Positions 11,225-29,026 of a DNA stretch of 64,000 bases are shown here, piece after piece. This stretch comes from Raja brachyura (taxonomy: Eukaryota). Made by a program: the position numbers and the translations under genes. The stretch covers positions 21,080,001-21,144,000 of the forward strand of contig OY740785.1 in assembly GCA_963514005.1 (NCBI GenBank). The letters run 5' to 3'. Under the pieces are notes generated by a model. The model saw only the letters and a list, made by a program, of their open reading frames with translations. It was not told the origin of the DNA and did no database searches. The stretch's first letter is position 1, and every line of letters starts with the position of its first letter.

Positions 11225-11337
11225 CTGGTGCTCCCAGAATATTCTATTCATGGCTTGTTCTGTATCATGTTCCTGTGCGCACAAGAATGGCTGACATTGG
11301 GTCTCAATATACCCCTGCTCTTCTACAATCTTTGGAG
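11225..11337 (+). CDS. cnih3: Cornichon homolog 3, coding exon 4
   Basis: catag|...|gtaaga; 113 nt; [37 protein letters not shown](R). The AQEWLT motif is CNIH3-type. Confidence 0.95.
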
Positions 11338-11424
11338 GTAAGATGAAATAGATTTTTAACCAAAGGTGGGGTGAGAGCGGGAAAAAGGTTTTGAGGAAAG
11401 TTGGATCAAACATCGCAAGTCTTA

Positions 11425-17652: not shown

Positions 17653-17796
17653 GTACTTCCACAGCCCTGCGGACAGTAATGAGCTGATGTACGATCCAGC
17701 AACAGTGATGAATGATGAGACTCTCAATTACTGCCAGAAAGAAGCCTGGTGCAAGGCATCCTTCTACCTGATGTCCTTTTTCTACTACCTTTACTG
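17653..17796 (+). CDS. cnih3: Cornichon homolog 3, coding exon 5
   Basis: ttgcag|...|gtaaag; 144 nt; [47 protein letters not shown](C). Confidence 0.95.
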
Positions 17797-17899
17797 GTAA
17801 AGGGTCTTTCTCTAAGGAGGAACTGGAATCTTGGTTCAGGCTCACTTGTAAAGCATCACTGGCAGGAACAGAAGGTGGTTGTGATGGGACAGCTGTTTA

Positions 17900-18550
17900 T
17901 GTGGAAACAAAGAACTGCAAATGATGGTTAATATACAAAAGGGGACAAAGTACGGGAGAAACTAGGCAGGTTGAGAGCCCACTTCAGACTGATTGTAGGG
18001 GGGAGAGAAGAAACCTGGAAAAGAGGAGAGGCAGGACAAAGTATGGCAGGTAATAGGTCAACACAGATGACGGGGATTTTTTAACAGGCAGATGGTTGGA
18101 ACAAAGGCTAGAGATGAAAAATGAAGGTGTGAGGTAGCTTTAAAGAATTATGAATGGTGAAGCCAGGGGGGAGGAAAGTAGCAGGAAGGGGAGGGCGTGA
18201 GGGGGGTTGTAGAGGAGAGAAATGGGTAGGAGTCCAGGTGGTGCACATAAGGGAGGGAAGGGTGCGGGAAGGTACAGGAGAGAATGGGGAGGGGGGTTGA
18301 GGGGGTGGGGGAGTTAGTTAGCAGTTACCTAAACTTGGAGAATTCAACGTTCATACCATTTACACCGTTCATATCGTTGGGTTGTAAGCTACCAAGGTGG
18401 AATATGAGGTGCCGTTCCCCCAGTTTGTGTGTGACCTCACACTGGCAATGGAGGATGCCCAGGACAGAAAGGTCAACATGGGAATGGGAAGGCGCATTAA
18501 AATGGTTGGGAGCCAGGAGATCAAGTATGCCTTAACGGACCGAGCACAAC
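17900..18550 (-). mobile_element. Penelope-like element 3' fragment
   Basis: Endonuclease C-terminal remnant (HFNAPSHSHVDLSVLGILHCQ..ERHLIFHLG) followed by the terminal repeat. Confidence 0.65.
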
Positions 18551-19089
18551 GTTGAAGGGCTCGATAGGCTACACTGTCAGAGTGATGTAGCAGAGAAACG
18601 AGTCCTTCAGCCTATCATATTCGTGTTAGCCCATCCATATGTATTCCCTGTTCCAACACTTGATCTGAAACACTCTGTGCCTTCACGATTCAAGTGCTTG
18701 TACATAACTTCCAAAATGTACTGAAAGTCTCTGCCTCTACCAATCCCTCAGACAGCGTGTTCCAGATTTCAGTCACCCCCTGGGTGAAAAAACTCTTCCT
18801 CAGATCCCTGACAAAAATTCTAAACCTATGTCCTCGAGTTTTAGAGACCACAATCATTTGGGGAAAAGTGTCCTATTATTTAATCTGTCCATGACCTTAA
18901 TAATTTTGTATCTCTCTATCAGGTCTCCTTCAGCCTCTTCCACAATAGGAAAAGCTATGCATGCAATTCACACAATCCATGAGTACATCAGATAAGGAAA
19001 AAATAAGTGCGGAATGTAGCTACGGAGCTAAGGGAGAAAGTGTAAAAAAAGATTAAGGCCGCAGTGAGGCAGATTGGAAGATTGGCGAT

Positions 19090-20090
19090 TAATCCCCAGC
19101 CTGTGAAAGGAACGTTCAAGAGACCGATAACATCAGGGAAGAAGCTGCTTTTGAATCTGGTGGGGCATGCTGTCATGCTCTTGTATATTCTGGCCAGATG
19201 GAACAGAGTGGTCAGATGGGAGAGAGTGGAGAAGAGCAAATGAGCAAAGTGCAAATGTATGTTGGCTGCTTTCCTGATGCAATATGATGTATAGATGGAG
19301 TTGATGGGGCAATGGGGAAACACTGCTTTGTGTGATTGACTGAGTTGCATTCACAACTGTCTGCAATTTCTTGTGGTCTTGGGCAAAGCAGTTGCCTTAC
19401 CAATCTTTGATGAATCTGGATAGGATGCTTTTTATGATGCATGTGAAGAAATTGGCAAGAGTCTTGGAGACATGCCAAATTTCCTTAGCTTCTGAGAGGT
19501 AGAGGAGTTGGTGTGGTTTCTTGGCCATTGTGTCAATGTTTAGTTTAGTTTAGAGATACAGCATGGAAACAGGCCCTTCGGCCCACCGAGTCCACACTGG
19601 CCATCGATCACCCGTTCACACTAGTTCTATTATCCCACTTTCTCATCCACTCAATACGCACTAGGGGCAATTTACAGAGGGCTAATTAACCTGCATCCTA
19701 TACGGTCATATGAAGAACGTGCAAACTCCACACAGACAGACCGAGGTTAGGATCGAACCTGTGTCTCTGGCACTGAGAGGTAGAAGCTCTACCAGCTGCG
19801 CCACAGTGTTGCCTCACTCATAGCTGTGAAATAACCACCTACAAGTGGCAAAAATCAATTCTGAGCACCCAAGACCATCAACAAACGAGATCACCACTGG
19901 CCACATTGGAAATCACCAATGTGGTTGGACGAGGAGAAATTGTTGGTGATATTTACATCTAAGAACTTGAAAGACTCGACCGTTTCCACTTCAACACCAT
20001 TGAAACAGACTGGGGCGAGTATTCCACCCGGCTTCTGAAGTCGGTGATCAGCTCCATCATTTTGCTAACATTGAGGGAGAGGTTGTTATC
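19090..20090 (-). mobile_element. Rex1/Babar-type LINE 3' fragment, interrupted by an HE1-like SINE (19538-19812)
   Basis: RIYKSMTACPTRFKSSFFPDVIGLLN C-terminal motif. The SINE reads on the minus strand with a TAAAC tail. Confidence 0.65.
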
Positions 20091-20989
20091 TTGGTACCAT
20101 GGTTCCAAGCTTTCTATTTCTGAGATATGGTTGCAACATGTTTTGGGATGGCTCCAGGGTTACTGGTGCTCCCTGTAGACAGTGAACATAATGCAAGCTA
20201 TTCATTTCCCACCAGGGAACCAATAAAGTCAATGCCACTAATGTCAGAGTCACAGCATCACAGGAAAGAGACACTTCAACAGATAGATGTCAATATGAGC
20301 TTGTGGTGATAGCTTCTGCGCTGGTATTTAAAGGATTTAAGAGCAATATACAAGATTTTCATGCTGGCTGCAAAGGTGGAAATTGAAAATTCAGAGCGCA
20401 ATTTGTACTGTAGGAGTAGATGCCAAGACTCAACAACACTTTGTGTTGAGTGTGGTAAGGTTGGCGATTGTGTGACCAAGGCTCGGTCTAATAAGAGAAC
20501 AAGCCTGCATGAGAGGGTAAATCTGTTAATGAAATAGTATTTGGAAAACAATGTAAGGTTGACATTTTTCATTAACATTTCAAAAGAAATTCCCTTTTCT
20601 TACAAACAGTAGTGACCCAAAGCATATGAGAGGCATATGAGAAATTTGAGGCAAATACAAAAATAAAAAGGACGAGTTCAATAGACAGGAGCATGGCAGG
20701 TAGTGATGGAAGGTGCTGCTGCAAGTAAGAGTTTCATTGTTCCATTTTAGACATATGACAATAAAACACTCTTGACCTTTGAGACTGATGGATTAAGCTG
20801 CATTTATTTCAATATCACAAGGTCACCCATTTGTGCCGCCACAGGAAATAGTTGAGGTGTTAAATGAAAATGTCTAATTTGTATTTACTGCAAAGTAAGA
20901 CATGATGGTAGGTAACTTTGAGAAATTCATAATGATCTCTTAAAGAGAGTCCACTTTACAGAAGAGTACTGAATGTCATAAAACCCATT

Positions 20990-21590
20990 CAGGTACATTA
21001 GATAAATCCCTGGGAAGAAAACCAGGGAAGAAATCGTGGGGCCATTAGCAGAGATATTTTATGTCATCGATAATATTGGGTGGGGTGCCAAAAGACTGGA
21101 TGGTGGCTAATACCGTACCTTTATTTAAGAAAGGGGTGTAAAGAAAAACCTGGGAAATTCTGGTGGGTTATCCCAACCTCAGTAGTGGGTAAGATACTGG
21201 AGGGATTCTGTGAGACAGGATCTATGTGCATTTGGAAGAGGAAGGACTGATTAGTGATAACCATGGCTTTGTGCATGGGAAATTGTGTCTCATGAACTTG
21301 ATTGATTTTTCTTTGAAGAGGTGACCATGAAGATTGATGAGAGCAGTGCTATAGACATTGTCTACATGAACCTTAACAAGACCTTTGGCAAAGTATCGCA
21401 TGACAGGCGATAGTCTGACAGACATGATAGTCTGGAAGGTTAGATCACATGGGATCGAAGGCAAGCTAGCCAATTGGATTTAAAATTGGCTTGAAGGTAG
21501 GAGTGTGGTGGTAAAGGGTTGTTTTTCAAACTGGAGGCTTGCAACAAGTGATGTGTCACAGAGATCGGTGCTAGGTCGACTATTGTTCGT
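20990..21590 (+). mobile_element. CR1 LINE RT fragment
   Basis: KDWMVANTVPLFKKG and HGFVHGKLCLMNL motifs. Confidence 0.75.
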
Positions 21591-21933
21591 TGCAGGTAGT
21601 TCTGTTCTAATGCAATGGTTTAGTTCATGATAAATCTTGTATTACAGAAAATTGCATTGTAAAACAATTGTGACAATGGGGACAATAGGGTTTAGGGCTA
21701 GAGAATTTCAGACTTGCAATAACAGTTATTTTATCCCCGCAGGATTTTCAAAAGTGAAGATTTTCATCACTATAAGATTATTTTTGTTACTGCAAAAATA
21801 CTAATGTTTGTATGTTACATTGTCTAAAGGAGTATCATTTGCCAAGTGGCAATAGAAGCACTCACTTGTAGATTTCAGTAGCCAGCTTGGATTAATGTGG
21901 CAACTAAGTTCTTAAGAACGCTGTCTGATTACT

Positions 21934-22061
21934 TCTTCTTTCGTGTGGTGTGCACAGCCTAAAGTTGTAGGACAACTTGTTCTATTTGATCTTCACAGTG
22001 TTGAGTTGATTGCATTAGTCGAAACAGGGCGGACCACGTGCAGGTTGCAATCTTCCACCCC
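21934..22061 (-). mobile_element. 128-bp non-autonomous retroelement with a 5' HDV-like ribozyme and Vingi-like GAAGA tail
   Basis: 12-bp TSD T(G/A)TCTGATTACT at 21922-21933 / 22062-22073; tail CACACGAAAGAAGA; ribozyme fold occupies the first 54 nt. Confidence 0.8.
22008..22061 (-). ncRNA. Minimal HDV-like self-cleaving ribozyme (predicted)
   Basis: GGGGTGG(P1) AA GATTGCA(P2) ACC(P3) TGCACGT(L3) GGT(P3') CCGCCCT(P1') G TTTCGA C TAA TGCAATC(P2'). All helices pair, with a G1.U wobble and a C at the catalytic position of J4/2. Confidence 0.78.
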
Positions 22062-23370
22062 TATCTGATTACTATGGGGTGGATACACTTTATTTCTATG
22101 CTGTATCTCTAAAAAAAATCTAAAAATGAACTATTTGGCATTTTTTTAGTTCCTGAACAAATTTGTGTTGTGACCGTTCAGGCTTCTGTAATAAAATTGT
22201 GTTCTCTAATTCATCACTAGTGTTGCACCCAATTCACATTTTGGAAACTATCTCTATTTACATTAACAATTTGGATGTGAGTATACGTGGCATGTTGGTA
22301 AGCTTGTGGATGACTACATTTGACATCTAAGTTTACAACGGGATCTCGATTAACTGGGCCAATGAGCCAAAGGATGGCAGATGGAGTAAATGAGAGGTGT
22401 TTCATTTCCGAAAGGCAAATCAGGACAAATCTTGCACATCACATGATAAGGGCTTAGTGAGGGAGACCAAGGGTTGTGATGAATTTTATGTTTTGCATGC
22501 TGGAGGCTTGAGGTGCACCTTTGTTAGACTGGTATCTCATTTTTAGATATGGCTGTCAACAGAGAGACTCTTTAAGTTATAATGCAGTAAAATTATAGTA
22601 AATCTACCATCCCAGCTCCCTTAGGATTTTGGTGGTGCTAGACTGGCATATTTTCCAGACATATAGATATTACTTCTAGTAATGCACTATTTTAAAATAA
22701 TAGTTTACAATAAGTAGAATAAAAAGTTTTCTAGTGAACCCGACGAGTTTAAAGGGAATGTGAGCTTACTGAGTTCTTGACTACACCATATTGGGTGTTT
22801 ATGGGAGAGTATATTGAGTCATGTGACTATTTGTCAAAACTCCTTCTATGGCTTCAGAACACGGTAGTGAAATGCTCCAGGTGAAAGTGAGCCCTTTTGT
22901 TTTTGATATTTGTAAGCAAAATAATGGGCAGATAGTAAGAGATTGGGAAAAGACAAATTGGAATTTTTTACATCCAATATTAGAAACAGGTGGAGTTGAG
23001 ATCCATTATCCTGAGTATTGAAGTTGGGAGGTTATGTTACAGTTGTACAATACATTGGTGAGTCCACATTTGGAGCATTGTGTTCGGTTTAGTTACCCTG
23101 TTATAAGACGGATGTTGTCAAGTAGGAAAGGGTGCAAAGAAGATTTATAAGGATGTTCCTGGGTGTAAAAGGCTCTGAGCTACTGGGAGAGGTTCAGCAG
23201 TCTAGGACTTTATTCCTTGTAATGCAGAAGGATGAAGGGTGATCTTATAGAGGTGTAAATGATCATGAGGGGGAAAGATAGGGTAAATGCCTACTTATTC
23301 CCCATATTTTTTCCCGGTGATGGGGAATCAAGAATCAGAGGATATCATTTCAATGTGAGGTGAAAGCATA

Positions 23371-25807
23371 TCTATATTACTAAAAGTCTGATCTTGACCA
23401 CTTCCTGTTGTTCTGTATATTGATTTTAGAAAAAACGCTGCCATTTCCGGCTGTGATTTTTGGCCATTTACTCAGAGTCCCCCTCTGCTGCGCAGGACAA
23501 GAGGATTTTTCCCATCGATGCAAAATAAAAGAGTTATTAGTGTTTAAAAAATGTTGAGAATCTCTTTCCTGAAGGCCATGCCCCTTCTGGAGGGACTATA
23601 AAACCCGGAAGTGTTGAGTGCCTCAATTAGTCTCTGCAAGATGGGGGAGCGAGAGGGTCACGTCTCTCAGTCTGCCCACTATATAATTAAAAGTCTAATC
23701 TTGACTACTTCCTGTTTGCACCTTATATTGATTTAAGGCTACCACGTACGGCTGTGATTTTTGGCCATCTTACTCAAAGTCCCCCTCCGCTCATCAGTTG
23801 CCGAAGATTTTTCCCATCAATGAAAAATAAAAGAGTTATTAGTGTTTAAAAAAATGTTGAGATTCTCTCACCTGTCAATCACACCATGAAGGCCATGCCC
23901 CTTCTGGTGGGAGGGGGGAGGAACTATAAAACACAGAAGTGTGGGCGTGGCTCAGACTCTGCAAGATGGAGGAGGGAGTGGTCACGACTCGCTGTCTTTA
24001 GTGGCCTTGCACCCTGCTTGAAGTGGTAAGAAACTGCACTTGAATTTGGTGGCCTTGCACCCTGCTTGAAATGGAATTTCAAATAATAGCCCTGAGTGAG
24101 CTGCCAGCACAACAGGCTTGAATGCCCAAGAATCCATTCGGCCCACAATGTCCATACTAGCCCTCTGGAAACCAGTCCCTTCAGCCCACAACACCCATAA
24201 TAGCACTCCAGAAAGCCCCCCCACCCCCCCCCCCCCCCCAGCCACCAATATTGAAATTAGTGGGGAGGTGGTATATTGTGTTGGGGGACCAGCCCTCCCG
24301 TGTGATACTGGGACCCAACCAATCCCACTTAGTCTAGTAACTTATAAAACTCTGATCTTGGGGAGGGGGGGGGGTGTGGGGGGTGTGTGTGTGTGTCTTT
24401 TCATATGTGATTCACATCTCCTCGAAAACCCGAGGTGGTAACAGTGAAATTGTTACATATTCCGGTAGAGATTTACCTCATGATTTCAAAAGTCCCCTCA
24501 TCTGAAAATTTGAATCATTATTTCCCACGTTATTTACTAAAATTGTTCACCAATCTGACATTTTTAAAATCTAACTGCTGAAGCGAGCTGATGACGTCAC
24601 AATGCCTTTGCTCCGCACGGCCAGCTGTGCAGAGTTTTCAACGCGCAGCCATGAGCTGCGAGTTACGTGGCCTAGCCGCCCTCCCCCCCCCCCCCGGCTC
24701 TGGATTGAAGCCGTTGAACACATGATCAAGTCATGCTGCTCGCTCCGCTGGACTCCTTGAAGTTCTACAACATGGCAGCGGCGGTCGTTATCGCAGCGCG
24801 GACGCAGACAAGCGCAGTGGAAAAGTGGCCATGACGGCCATCACAGGGGACGACCTCCTCTCCCCCGCCCGAATGTTTGTCACACTGGTGGGTACGCTTG
24901 CCCTCGCGGAAACCACGATCGGTCAGCCCTCCGCTGCTTTTCAACGTTCTCAGATCGCTCTGGGCCTGGCTCTGGTCTACGCCTGCCGCAGCCTAGTCCG
25001 GGCCTAGCGCCTGATGGGGAGGCCTGCTCTACGACCTGGGTAGGTGATGCCTCTACCCCCCCCCCCCGGGGCAGAGAAAGAGAGAAAGAGGGTGGGGGGG
25101 AGAGGGGGTGGGAGATAGGGGGGTGGGGAAAGAGGGGGGTTGGAGGGAGGAAGGGAGTGGAGAGGGGGGGAGGAGAGGGGGGGAGGAGAGGGGGAGAGGA
25201 GAGGGGGGAGAGGTGGGAGGGGGGTGCAGAGGGGGGAGGAGAGGGGGCCCTCCCTCTCTGCCCCCTCTCCCTATCTGCTCCCCCCTCTCTGCTCCCCACC
25301 CTCTCTGCTCCCCTTGCCTCTCTGCCCCCCCTTCCTCTGCTCTCCTTCCTCTCTGCTCCCCTCCCTCTCTGCCCCCCCCTTTCTCTCTGCCCCCCCCCCC
25401 TCCCTCTCTGCCCCCCCTCCCTCCCTCTTTGCCCCTCCCTCCCTCTCAAGGGAGTAGTGAATATTCGGACGTATGGGTGAGTGGTGGAGTCCCCTGTGCC
25501 CTCTCCTGTGATGCCACAGCCCCCCACCCCTCAATCTCTACCCCCCTCAATCTCTAGACCCCTCCTTCTCCATCTCTACCCCTTCCCCCCCCCTCTCTAG
25601 CTGCGCCTGCACAGTTGGGGGTTTTGCGTGAGTGGATAGGGTGGTGGGTAGGGTAAAAGGAGTGAATGAATAATATTAATATAATATCAGGGGGGGGGGC
25701 TAGTGTGTGTGGGGGGTGGTTAGTGTGTGTTACACCGAAGGTCGCCCACCACCCCCCCGCAACCGCATGTTGAGGGGACGGGACCCAACGGGTCCCACTT
25801 GGTCTAG
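23371..25807 (+). mobile_element. Head-to-tail non-autonomous Helitron cluster inserted in a CR1 LINE
   Basis: A|TCTATATTACTAAAA 5' end; further 5' modules at ~23678 and ~24340; 3' hairpins before CTAG|T at 24334-24337 and 25804-25807 (GGGACCC-AAC-GGGTCCC); no TSD; CR1 on both sides. Confidence 0.8.
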
Positions 25808-26109
25808 TATTTAATAAGAATCTGAGTGATATCTTTCTCACACAAAGGACGGTCGATATATGGAACGAGTTGCCAGTGGACATTGTTGAGGCAGGTATAA
25901 ACACTACATTTAAAAGATATTTGGACAGGTACGTGGTTAGCAAAGGTTTAGAAAGATATGGGCCAAATGCAGGCGGGTGGGACTTGGTTGGTGTGAGCAA
26001 GTTGGGCCGAAGGCCTGTTCCCCTGCTCTCTGACTCTGATTCTATATCTGTTAAGATAGTGAATGACTGGGATTGGAGTCCTGAGGTGGTACTATTCCCA
26101 TGGGTCTAC

Positions 26110-28225
26110 TGAGTCATATTCATAAAGCACGGAAACAAGCCCTTCGATCTAACTCATCCATGCCGACCAAATTGCCTCATCTAAGCTAGACCCATTTGTC
26201 TGCTTTTGGCACATATTCCTCTAAACCTTTTGTATCCATGTACCTGCCCAATTGTCTTTTAAATGATGTTATAATACGTGCCTCAACTAACTCCTTTGGC
26301 ATCTCATTCCATACACTCACAACCCTCTGAGTGAAAAAGTTATCCCTCAGGTTCGTATTAAATCTTGTCTCTCATACCTTAAACCTGTCCTCAGGTATTT
26401 GATTCCTCTACTACGGGTAAAAGACTGTGCATTCAACCTATCTATTCCCCTTATGGCTTTATACACCTAAATGAGACTGACCCTCACCTCCTGCGCTCCA
26501 AGGAATAAAGTCCAAGCCTGCCCCACCTCCCTCTGTAGCTCATCCACTCAAGTCCTGGCAACATCCTCACAAATCTTCACTGCATAGTTTAATGATGTAC
26601 TTCCTGTAGCAGAGTGACCAAAACAGTTGTTTGCAAATTACACTTAAGTGGGTGGATGGAAGAAGGTATTTAGAGGGAAGACGCCCCATCTACACGAATC
26701 CCATCTATAGCTCAAGCTCTCATCCTGCCAAAATAATTGCAATTCTTCTCTGCACTCTTTCCAGCTTAACAACATTCTTCCTATAGCAGGGTGAGCAAAA
26801 CTGAACACAATACTCCAAATATGGCCTCACCAACATCTTGTACTACTGCAATAGAGCATCCCAACCTTTATACTCAAGAACCTGACTGGCGAAGGCCAAT
26901 GTACTAAATGCCTTCTTGACCACGCTATCTATACTATTACATAGAAAAATAGGTGCAGGAGTAGGCCATTCGGCCTTTCGAGCCTGCACCGCCATTCAAT
27001 ATGATCATGGCTGATCATCCAACTCAGTATCCCGTACCTGCCTTCTCTCCATACCCCCTGATCCCTTTAGCCACAAGAGCCACATCCAACTCCCTCTTAA
27101 ATATAGCCAATGAACTGGCCTCAACGACCTTCTGTGGCAGAGAATTCCAGAGACTCACCATTCTCTGTGTAAAGAATGTTTTACTCATCTCGGTCCTAAA
27201 GGAATTCCCCCTTATCCTTAGACTGTGACCCTTTGTCCCCCAACATCGGGAACAATCTTCCTGCATCTAGCTTGTCCAACCCCTTAAGAATTTTGTAAGT
27301 TTCTATAAGATCCCCGTTCAATCTTCTAAATTCCAGTGAGTACAAGCCAAGTCTATCCAGTCTTTCTTCATATGAAAGTCCCGACATCCCAGGAATCAGT
27401 CTGGTTACGAAAAGTCCAATCTTGACCACATCCGGTGTACGTTGATTTTAAATTTGTGCAAATCCTACATCGCTAGGATTTTCCCGCCACCTTACTCACA
27501 TTCTTCTCTGCTCCAAGCGCACCAAGTTTTATTCCGCTCGGTCGAAGATTACAAAAGTTATGAAGGTTGAAAAAATTGTGAGATTAGGAGATTGGTCTTC
27601 TTGCCTGTCAGTCACCATAAAGGTAACGCCCCTTCCAGCACCTGCTGGAGAATAAAACTCCGCAGGCAGGGCTGAGTCCGTGAGCATGTCCAGAAGCACG
27701 TCACCTAACCTTTCCAGCATACCTGCATATTGAAATCCCCCAAGAGCACTGTAACATTGCCTTTCCTGCTGTAATTTGTACGCTACATCCTGGCTGCTAT
27801 TCAGAAGCCTGCATATAAATCCAATCAGGGTCTTTTTACCCTTGCAGTTTATTCATAGAAACATAGAAAATAGATGCAGGAGTAGGCCATTCGGCCCTTC
27901 AAGCCAGTACCGTTATTCAATATGATCATGGCTGATCATCCAAAATCAGTACCCCTTTCCTGCTTTTTCCCCATTTCCCTTGATTATGACTGTTTGGCAA
28001 ATCAAATTCTTTGTATTATTTACATACTTGTTTGTTTACATACTTGGCTAATAAATTCAATTACAATTACAATTCCTATATCCCTAAGAGCTAAATCTAA
28101 CTCTTGAAAACATTCAGTCAATTGGCCTCCACTGCCTTCTGTGGCAGAGAATTCCACAGATCACAACTCTCTGGGTGAAAAACCATTTTCCTCATCTCGG
28201 TCCCAAATGGCCTACCCATTATTCC
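26110..28225 (-). mobile_element. Stack of CR1 LINE 3' fragments with a Helitron fragment at ~27405-27720
   Basis: GLSYEERLDRLGLYSLEFRRL and FFTQRMVSLWNSLPQ motifs; TTTCTATG-type tails. Confidence 0.8.
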
Positions 28226-28234
28226 ATAGCAAGG

Positions 28235-28805
28235 GCTAACTGAAGTTAGAGAAGCCAATGTTCATACCGCTGGGGTGCAAATTACCCAAACGAAATATGG
28301 GGTGCTGTTCTTCCAATTTGACTGGGCCTCACTCTGACGATGGGGGAGGCCCAGGACAGAAAGGTCAGATTAGGAATGGGAGGGTGAGTTGACATGCTGA
28401 GCCACCGGGATATCAGGTAGGTTAAGGAGGACTGAGCGGTGTTCAGTGAAACGATCGCCGAGCCTGCGATGTAGAGAAGTTGACATCTGGAACAGCGGAT
28501 ACAGTAGATGCGTTTGGAGGCGGTGAAAGTGAACCTCTGCCTCACCTGGAAAGACTGTATGGGTCCTTGGATGGAGTCGAGGGGGGAGGTAAAGGGAGAG
28601 TGTTGCATCTCCTGCGGTTGCAGGGGGAAGTACCTGGGGAAGAGGTGGTTTGGGTGGGAAGGGACGAGTTGACCAGGGAGTTTCAGAGGAAATGGTCTCT
28701 GTGGACAGCAGAAAGGGGTGGAGATGGGAAGATGTGGCCAGTACTGGGATCCCGTTGGAGTTGGCGAAAATGTTGGAGGATTACATGCTGTATGCGACGG
28801 CTGGT
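28235..28805 (-). mobile_element. Penelope-like element GIY-YIG endonuclease fragment
   Basis: IQGPIQSFQVRQRFTFTASKRIYCIRCSRCQLLYI. Confidence 0.8.
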
Positions 28806-28998
28806 GGGGGGGGGGGGGGGGGGGGGGGGGGGAGGATAGAGTTGTGCTGTTTTGGCTAGAAGATGAATGGGTGGAGTGGATACCTTGATGTAGGGACTAC
28901 TGGGCGAAATGTGCTACTTGCTTGGAGCGGATGCTGTGCTATGTAAATGTAAACATGAAATGAGGTTCACCTGGTGGGTTTTTGCTCTTCTTCTGCAG

Positions 28999-29026
28999 TA
29001 TGATTGACACGCTGGTCAGCATCTAA
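28999..29026 (+). CDS. cnih3: Cornichon homolog 3, terminal coding exon 6
   Basis: ttcttctgcag|t ATG ATT GAC ACG CTG GTC AGC ATC TAA = (C)MIDTLVSI*. Phase fits exon 5. Exons 2-6 total 402 nt, which with a standard 81-nt exon 1 gives 160 aa. Confidence 0.88.

Follow-up and report, generated by a model that had tools for sequence, protein, structure and literature searches.

The 128-bp insert on the minus strand of the analyzed Raja brachyura DNA (assembly GCA_963514005.1, contig OY740785.1, positions 21,080,001-21,144,000 of the forward strand; this 64-kb stretch is termed the window) is one copy of a multi-copy retroposon. From sequence comparisons, we classify it as a bipartite non-autonomous LINE of SIDE type that derives by internal deletion from a Vingi-type LINE. 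We give a probability of roughly 80% to the whole explanation, namely that the retroposon consists of the two ends of a LINE and that its P4-less HDV-like ribozyme head likely cuts at its own first base. The following features of the window bear on it.

22008..22061, minus strand: predicted minimal P4-less HDV-like ribozyme, 54 nt (descriptor and alignment), with the predicted cut 5' of G1 (22061)
22055..22061, minus strand: P1 5' strand, partner 22026-22032, with a G1.U wobble
22046..22052, minus strand: P2 5' strand, partner 22008-22014
22033..22045, minus strand: P3 (3 bp) with the 7-nt L3, in which C22 (22040) can pair with G37 (22025) as P1.1
22015..22018, minus strand: J4/2 strand C-U-A-A, with C44 (22018) as the predicted catalytic cytosine
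21981..22061, minus strand: part from the 5' end of the partner LINE, element nt 1 to about 81 (alignment)
21962..21978, minus strand: 7-bp hairpin at the deletion junction (sequence)
21932..21975, minus strand: part from the 3' end of the partner LINE, element nt 87-130, 39/44 identical to LINE copy L160
21922..21933, plus strand: TSD, tail side (sequence)
22062..22073, plus strand: TSD, head side, adjoining G1 (sequence)
22076..22083, plus strand: flank word; its minus-strand transcript complements element nt 1-8, a pairing predicted to sequester P1 of the window copy
17797..28998, plus strand: last intron of a cornichon-family gene, in which the element lies antisense (exon positions)

Read from 22061 to 22008, the head is composed of GGGGTGG (P1 5' strand), AA (J1/2), GATTGCA (P2 5' strand), ACC (P3), TGCACGT (L3), GGT (P3 3' strand), CCGCCCT (P1 3' strand), G37, TTTCGA, C44-TAA, and TGCAATC (P2 3' strand). 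The 7, 7, and 3 pairs of its helices are all standard, including the wobbles G1.U36 and U5.G32, and form the nested double pseudoknot of HDV-like ribozymes in the right order (P1 of 7 bp, P2, P3 of 3 bp), which bears out the letters and pairing given in a preliminary description of this DNA. The head further has G1.Y, the L3 bases U20, C24, and G25, and the P1.1 pair C22-G37, features described in PMC6326823, and C44 occupies the catalytic-C position as defined in PMC10879173 and PMC6326823. The second P1.1 pair is not C-G; it is U.U in the mini-element family and G.U in the window copy. The earlier view that P4 is reduced to a UUCG loop needs a small correction: the 6 nt between G37 and C44 contain no P4 helix, only one U-A pair would close a UUCG loop, and the loop is different in the other P4-less family. 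By these criteria, the head is predicted to belong to the HDV-like ribozymes.

Our own strict HDV-like descriptor matched the 64-kb window exactly once, at the proposed site (22008-22061), and matched none of 200 dinucleotide shuffles, while a version relaxed by one mismatch each in P1 and P2 gave 12 matches in 100 shuffles. When the catalytic C of the descriptor was replaced, the 63 matches in the examined loci fell to 11 with U and to none with A or G. Rfam returned no ribozyme for the window or for the element at E<=10 (only two chance matches), and none for the heads of loci L009, L140, and L172. Pseudoknot-free folding of the element yields an unremarkable MFE z-score of 0.52, a measure that is uninformative for a pseudoknot fold such as this head.

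A search of the genome with the Rfam model of the CPEB3 ribozyme (RF00622, cut-off 35 bits) gave 59 scored candidates, 32 of them above the cut-off, and four further head types. The sister heads score 35-66 bits on this model, and the window head itself has no match to it. We aligned 16 heads from six types, selected by hand or by the CPEB3 model: 95.5% of the cells are paired and 12 of the 18 pairs are changed on both sides, the P1, P2, and P3 pairing thus being kept across the six types. The covariation score is 0.62, compared with 0.21 for shuffled alignments (0/500) and at most 0.12 for slid partners; two pair-type controls are weaker (6/500 and 260/500), and because the heads are related, the covariation counts as six lineages rather than 16 events. 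Whole helices have been swapped among the head types while the core letters were kept. Two P4-less types both retain G1.U, U20, C22-G37, G25, and the catalytic C, and C-U-A-A in J4/2 recurs in a third type, whose P4 is long. A second P4-less mini family (L052-L060, about 1501-1565) has other helix letters and its own tail; several of its copies have a P1 of 6 rather than 7 bp, with the TSD at G1. A chance resemblance to the HDV fold could appeal to the short helices, the lack of an Rfam match, and the z-score; it is scarcely credible given the shuffles, the start of the fold at the first base of the element, the covariation over six types, and the sister heads above the CPEB3 cut-off.

The origin of the head is indicated by loci in which both ends of the mini element flank coding sequence. 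At L076, the mini-element tail lies behind a zinc-finger-like coding end, and an upstream walk from such loci led to L140, in which the mini head (nt 9-57, 96%) and the tail are about 3.06 kb apart and flank a decayed ORF with Exo_endo_phos_2 and RVT_1 domains and no match to an RNase H domain. L140 is colinear with an intact 1019-aa homologue (55-69% identity), and from this colinearity of decayed copies we infer a single ORF in the partner LINE. The homologues measure 900-1100 aa in 40 of the 120 listed, and those near 1019 aa mostly carry RT and endonuclease domains only. The Vingi clade is defined by a compact single ORF with APE and RT and without RNase H (PMC13708176), a build that the partner LINE appears to fit. 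The Vingi-type label is based on domain build and colinearity, and none of the listed LINE homologues is a protein named Vingi. A protein from Anolis carolinensis with this build, presumably Vingi-1_Acar, matches the partner LINE at 29-45%.

The partner LINE is 3.1 kb long and has its first ~80 and last ~40 bases in common with the mini element: nt 1-81 of the element align with the start of the LINE, and nt 87-130 with its 3' end. The latter part (21932..21975) includes the stop codon, the 3' UTR, and the (GAA)n tail, and is likely the recognition site for the LINE protein. One LINE copy (L176) starts at G1. In mini type B (L169, L172-L175, L184, and others), LINE nt ~1-96 are fused cleanly to the last ~43 nt. 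L063 has a further mini junction, different from the others. The element thus has 5' and 3' parts homologous to one autonomous LINE and no ORF, as in SIDEs, and its head is LINE-derived, not the small-RNA-derived head with A and B boxes of a classical SINE; on the alignments, the predicted ribozyme is the 5' end of the partner LINE itself and not a newly acquired head. The element is short, has no coding sequence, and has a tail common to a LINE, as would also be expected if a ribozyme head had been captured independently and joined to that tail in a true SINE; however, the head is the 5' end of the same LINE, and L140, L176, and the clean type B junction refute an independent head, which we regard as very improbable. 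Of the ribozyme-headed SINE initially proposed, the head with a ribozyme fold and the short retroposon therefore remain, and the SINE with an independent head does not.

The 7-bp hairpin and the GAA tail reported earlier are both present. The hairpin is found in the mini family of the window but in neither the LINE nor mini type B; we place its origin at the junction of this mini family, and given that absence it cannot be essential for mobilization by the LINE. Several LINE copies lack nt 1-7. A LINE devoid of the P1 5' strand was considered and rejected, since L176 and the type B copies have this strand and its loss occurs mostly at 5' inversions. Many LINE copies have the first ~90-200 nt inverted against a 3' ORF piece, usually without nt 1-7 (L170, L178, L188, L193, L196; L131, L132, L151, L152, L158; L197, L199, L200, L203, L204). 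This arrangement resembles twin priming in which the second primer would land immediately past the ribozyme; such copies may be related to the origin of the mini elements. At L149 (391-535), a mini element with a TSD has inserted into 5' coding sequence of the LINE family from which it derives.

A search of the 2.7-Gb genome with the 128-mer gave 1289 first-look candidates, 40 of which were scored, at 90-100%. Exact patterns matched 5,261 tails and 5,295 heads genome-wide (reversed controls, 0), and at least 5,295 copies bear the ribozyme head. Because an exact head match is also present in only 18 of the first 100 listed tail matches (hand count), the family size is roughly estimated to be 20,000-30,000 copies, as these figures suggest. 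Among the 30 best copies, the TSD ends within 2 nt of G1 in 26. In a tail-selected sample, 30 loci reduce to 21 independent insertions after merging of L071/L072 and L082-L090: 16 have the head, four are 5'-truncated, and one is a LINE end. Among the 16 head copies, the P1 5' strand has at most one mismatch in 15 and the TSD is at G1 in 14, hence the 5' ends of copies coincide with G1, as had been proposed. L082-L090 (about 14.57-14.95 Mb of contig C1) represent one insertion multiplied within a larger tandem or segmental repeat.

The family has the marks of target-primed reverse transcription, namely TSDs, the (GAA)n repeat tail, and 5'-truncated copies, which together with the thousands of exact heads substantiates the proposed multi-copy retroposon. 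The TSDs of LINE and mini copies are 8-15 bp long; the 12-bp TSD of the window copy, identical at 11 of 12 positions between its arms, adjoins 22061, as described earlier. In all four public contig sets examined, which come from three organisms, loose contig ends accumulate at 22061 (289, 257, 261, and 34 contigs). An empty site was sought in these sets and none was seen; contigs run into the element from both flanks in two organisms. The upstream flanks of the copies are unrelated to each other, and insertion is not site-specific. Among 64 distinct copies, the base before G1 (position -1) is T in 34, A is mildly enriched at positions -12 and -11, and the other flank positions are nearly mixed. 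The T excess may reflect a preferred target or selection acting at the cleavage site.

Among the first 100 listed head matches (hand count), the predicted catalytic position is C in 97, and the second letter of J4/2 is U in 66, G in 26, and A in 8. A published HDV-like descriptor has J4/2 as C-R-R-A (PMC6326823), a pattern that about a third of these heads have. Differences within the family at the lineage level fall in tolerant places, namely J1/2, the second letter of J4/2, and one P1 pair, which is U-A in the LINE and U.G in the mini family. Head and linker changes between subfamilies are too few for a selection test, and the conservation seen within a single young family is largely due to its youth.

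In the preferred explanation, transcription of a source copy would come from read-through or start at a promoter within or close to the head. The nested pseudoknot would then fold, and C44 would cleave 5' of G1 to create a unit-length 5' end; because a cut at this point keeps the whole ribozyme, all full-length daughters would inherit it. The LINE endonuclease/reverse transcriptase would bind the common 3' end in trans, as LINE biology suggests, and target-primed reverse transcription of the element RNA would generate the TSD and the GAA tail. Folding and cleavage of the head are model predictions, and trans-mobilization by the LINE protein is proposed by analogy. Several observations weigh against this explanation: J4/2 is C-U-A-A in 66 of 100 heads as opposed to the published C-R-R-A (PMC6326823), P1.1 has only one Watson-Crick pair, Rfam gives no match, the U-substituted descriptor still has 11 matches, several LINE copies lack nt 1-7, an internal promoter would likewise give precise 5' ends, and some well-folded trypanosome heads are inactive in vitro (PMC4035085).

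The promoter argument leads to a possible though less probable variant, in which the same bases would act as an internal promoter in DNA and as a ribozyme in RNA, as in L1Tc/Pr77, and read-through would not be required because of this promoter. It is compatible with the preferred explanation and denies only that the ribozyme acts instead of a promoter. The heads of L1Tc and NARTc are described as doing both (PMC3383444, PMC4035085), Vingi is given as the sister clade of Ingi (PMC13708176), and the insertion is not site-specific, all of which favor a dual head. However, the element has no sense-strand A box that we could find and no well-placed B box: the only two B-box-like words each have one mismatch and neither is in register with an A box, and the sister heads differ widely in letters yet keep the fold. 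A tRNA gene scan also found none, and with neither an Rfam small-RNA head nor an A box, the lack of a tRNA, 5S, or 7SL head noted at the outset is upheld.

It is unlikely, in our judgment, that the fold is vestigial, that is, that the ribozyme of the ancestral LINE was active and the P4-less heads no longer cut, the fold now protecting the 5' end or binding protein while a promoter sets the ends. The departure of C-U-A-A from C-R-R-A, the weak P1.1, and the missing P4 would agree with such a loss, and the R2 ribozyme fold is described as also protecting template RNA ends (PMC13708176). Yet P4-less HDV-like ribozymes are reported to be active in vitro (PMC10879173), the two P4-less head types keep the core letters listed above, and the type with a long P4 has C-U-A-A as well.

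The preferred explanation concerns the family, and the window copy is probably impaired as a ribozyme (weak or dead) because of its private L3 G and the pairing of its own flank with nt 1-8. The G at 22041 is T in all of the first 100 listed head matches, and it creates a competing 4-bp hairpin that lowers the P3 probability to 0 from 0.32 in a typical copy; these and the following probabilities are pseudoknot-free estimates. By them, the change is probably harmful, in agreement with the impairment suspected earlier, although the same G could form a G.U pair in P1.1. The flank word lies 14 nt upstream of G1, and the P1 probability is 0.04; among 37 copies, such a flank complement occurs in the window copy alone, and P1 is below 0.1 in 11. 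The complement may have arisen by chance or through the insertion itself.

In the window, exons of a cornichon-family gene are found on the plus strand at about 7527, 8333, 11225-11338, and 17654-17796, and a candidate last exon follows at 28999; the element is therefore antisense in the last intron, and in this orientation would not be expected to cut the host pre-mRNA. The claimed position in intron 5 of cnih3 holds with respect to the antisense orientation; the last intron was found, and the number 5 presupposes a first exon beyond those located. The host gene is probably cnih3 rather than cnih2, from sequence and linkage. A second compact cornichon-family gene lies about 100 kb upstream of the window (contig C5:20982318-20983261), which fits a CNIH4-CNIH3 linkage. 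Compared with orthologues, the gene in the window appears to have a few unusual residues (KASF, MIDT) in otherwise conserved stretches at 17770-17775 and 29000-29023. One antisense insertion says nothing about selection.

The strategy of joining a ribozyme to a LINE tail is already known from NARTc, RIME, and the R2 SIDEs. NARTc (from L1Tc) and RIME (from ingi) are trypanosome elements with the Pr77/L1TcRz HDV-like ribozyme (PMC3383444, PMC4035085). By these accounts, they resemble the family in the window in joining two LINE ends, in the ribozyme cut at element position +1, and in their sister clade; NARTc, however, has 263 nt, a P4, and a poly-A tail, whereas the window family has 128-136 nt, no P4, and a (GAA)n tail. 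The window family also differs in occurring in a vertebrate and in having a parent without RNase H, and its cleavage is a prediction. The R2 SIDEs of Drosophila likewise combine a 5' HDV-like ribozyme with the 3' end of the parent and are moved in trans; as described in PMC3414825, they are rare and site-specific to rDNA, in contrast to the dispersed window family with its thousands of copies and APE-type parent. Bipartite non-autonomous Vingi derivatives exist (e.g., of Vingi-1_EE, as cited in PMC5786205), which are similar in arising by internal deletion of a single-ORF APE and RT element without RNase H. In the available text of the same article (Kojima 2018, PMC5786205), Vingi is named with the clades that make bipartite derivatives, but the clades given as carrying a known ribozyme do not include it.

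Minimal HDV-like and theta ribozymes are reported to come to ~99% from Caudoviricetes phages, next to tRNAs (PMC10879173), and by that description share with the window head the lack of P4, the catalytic C first in J4/2, and G1 at a processing boundary. Unlike the theta ribozymes of phages, with a cut site by a tRNA, the window head lies in a vertebrate intron with no tRNA and is not a theta ribozyme. The CPEB3 ribozyme (RF00622) has the family-typical L3 and G-U after P1 in its Rfam consensus, and its P1.1 is described as similarly weak, with one C-G and U.U (bioRxiv 2022.09.22.508989). The letters of P1, P2, and P3 differ between the two, however, and the window head has no RF00622 match; the CPEB3 ribozyme is also single-copy, intronic, on the sense strand, and P4-containing, unlike the window family.

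A closer link to CPEB3 is provided by the sister heads. L128, a full-length LINE of 3 kb, retains remnants of its ORF and has a TSD, and its first base is G1 of a head that scores 56.3 bits on RF00622. Type D heads adjoin inverted Vingi-type ORF pieces in four of the seven type D loci examined. In L034, a decayed copy, 54 of 67 positions agree with the Rfam consensus (hand count), and the 14 paired P4 letters are all identical to the CPEB3 consensus, although the other types have a different P4 or none. We lean, on these sequence comparisons, towards the view that Vingi-type LINEs as a group start with an HDV-like ribozyme, from 54-nt P4-less to near-CPEB3 forms, and that the CPEB3 ribozyme would descend from the 5' end of such a LINE, inserted in sense orientation into a CPEB3 intron and domesticated there. 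Common descent of the type D/L128 heads and the CPEB3 ribozyme would be the simplest reading, although the CPEB3-like heads were found with the CPEB3 model itself and convergence on a small fold is an alternative. Our literature search, which covered listings, abstracts, and article passages, found no prior report of a Vingi ribozyme or of a retrotransposon origin of the CPEB3 ribozyme. Three points look new: a predicted ribozyme that lacks P4 yet occurs outside phages, the occurrence of a ribozyme at the head of Vingi-type elements, and the sister heads that pass the Rfam cut-off of the mammalian CPEB3 ribozyme, one of them at the exact start of a full-length LINE.

Taken alone, the element is a compact new example of the known ribozyme-plus-LINE-tail logic. 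If the explanation is true, P4-less HDV-like ribozymes, reported almost only from gut phages, would be present by the thousands in a vertebrate genome, and with a function. Current work to engineer Vingi elements for gene insertion keeps the native 5' UTR (PMC13708176); a 5' ribozyme, if true, would explain the role of this 5' UTR, and the 130-nt natural cargo shows the smallest cis signals. A descent of the mammalian CPEB3 ribozyme, for whose origin the literature we examined has no agreed account, from a Vingi-type LINE is directly testable.
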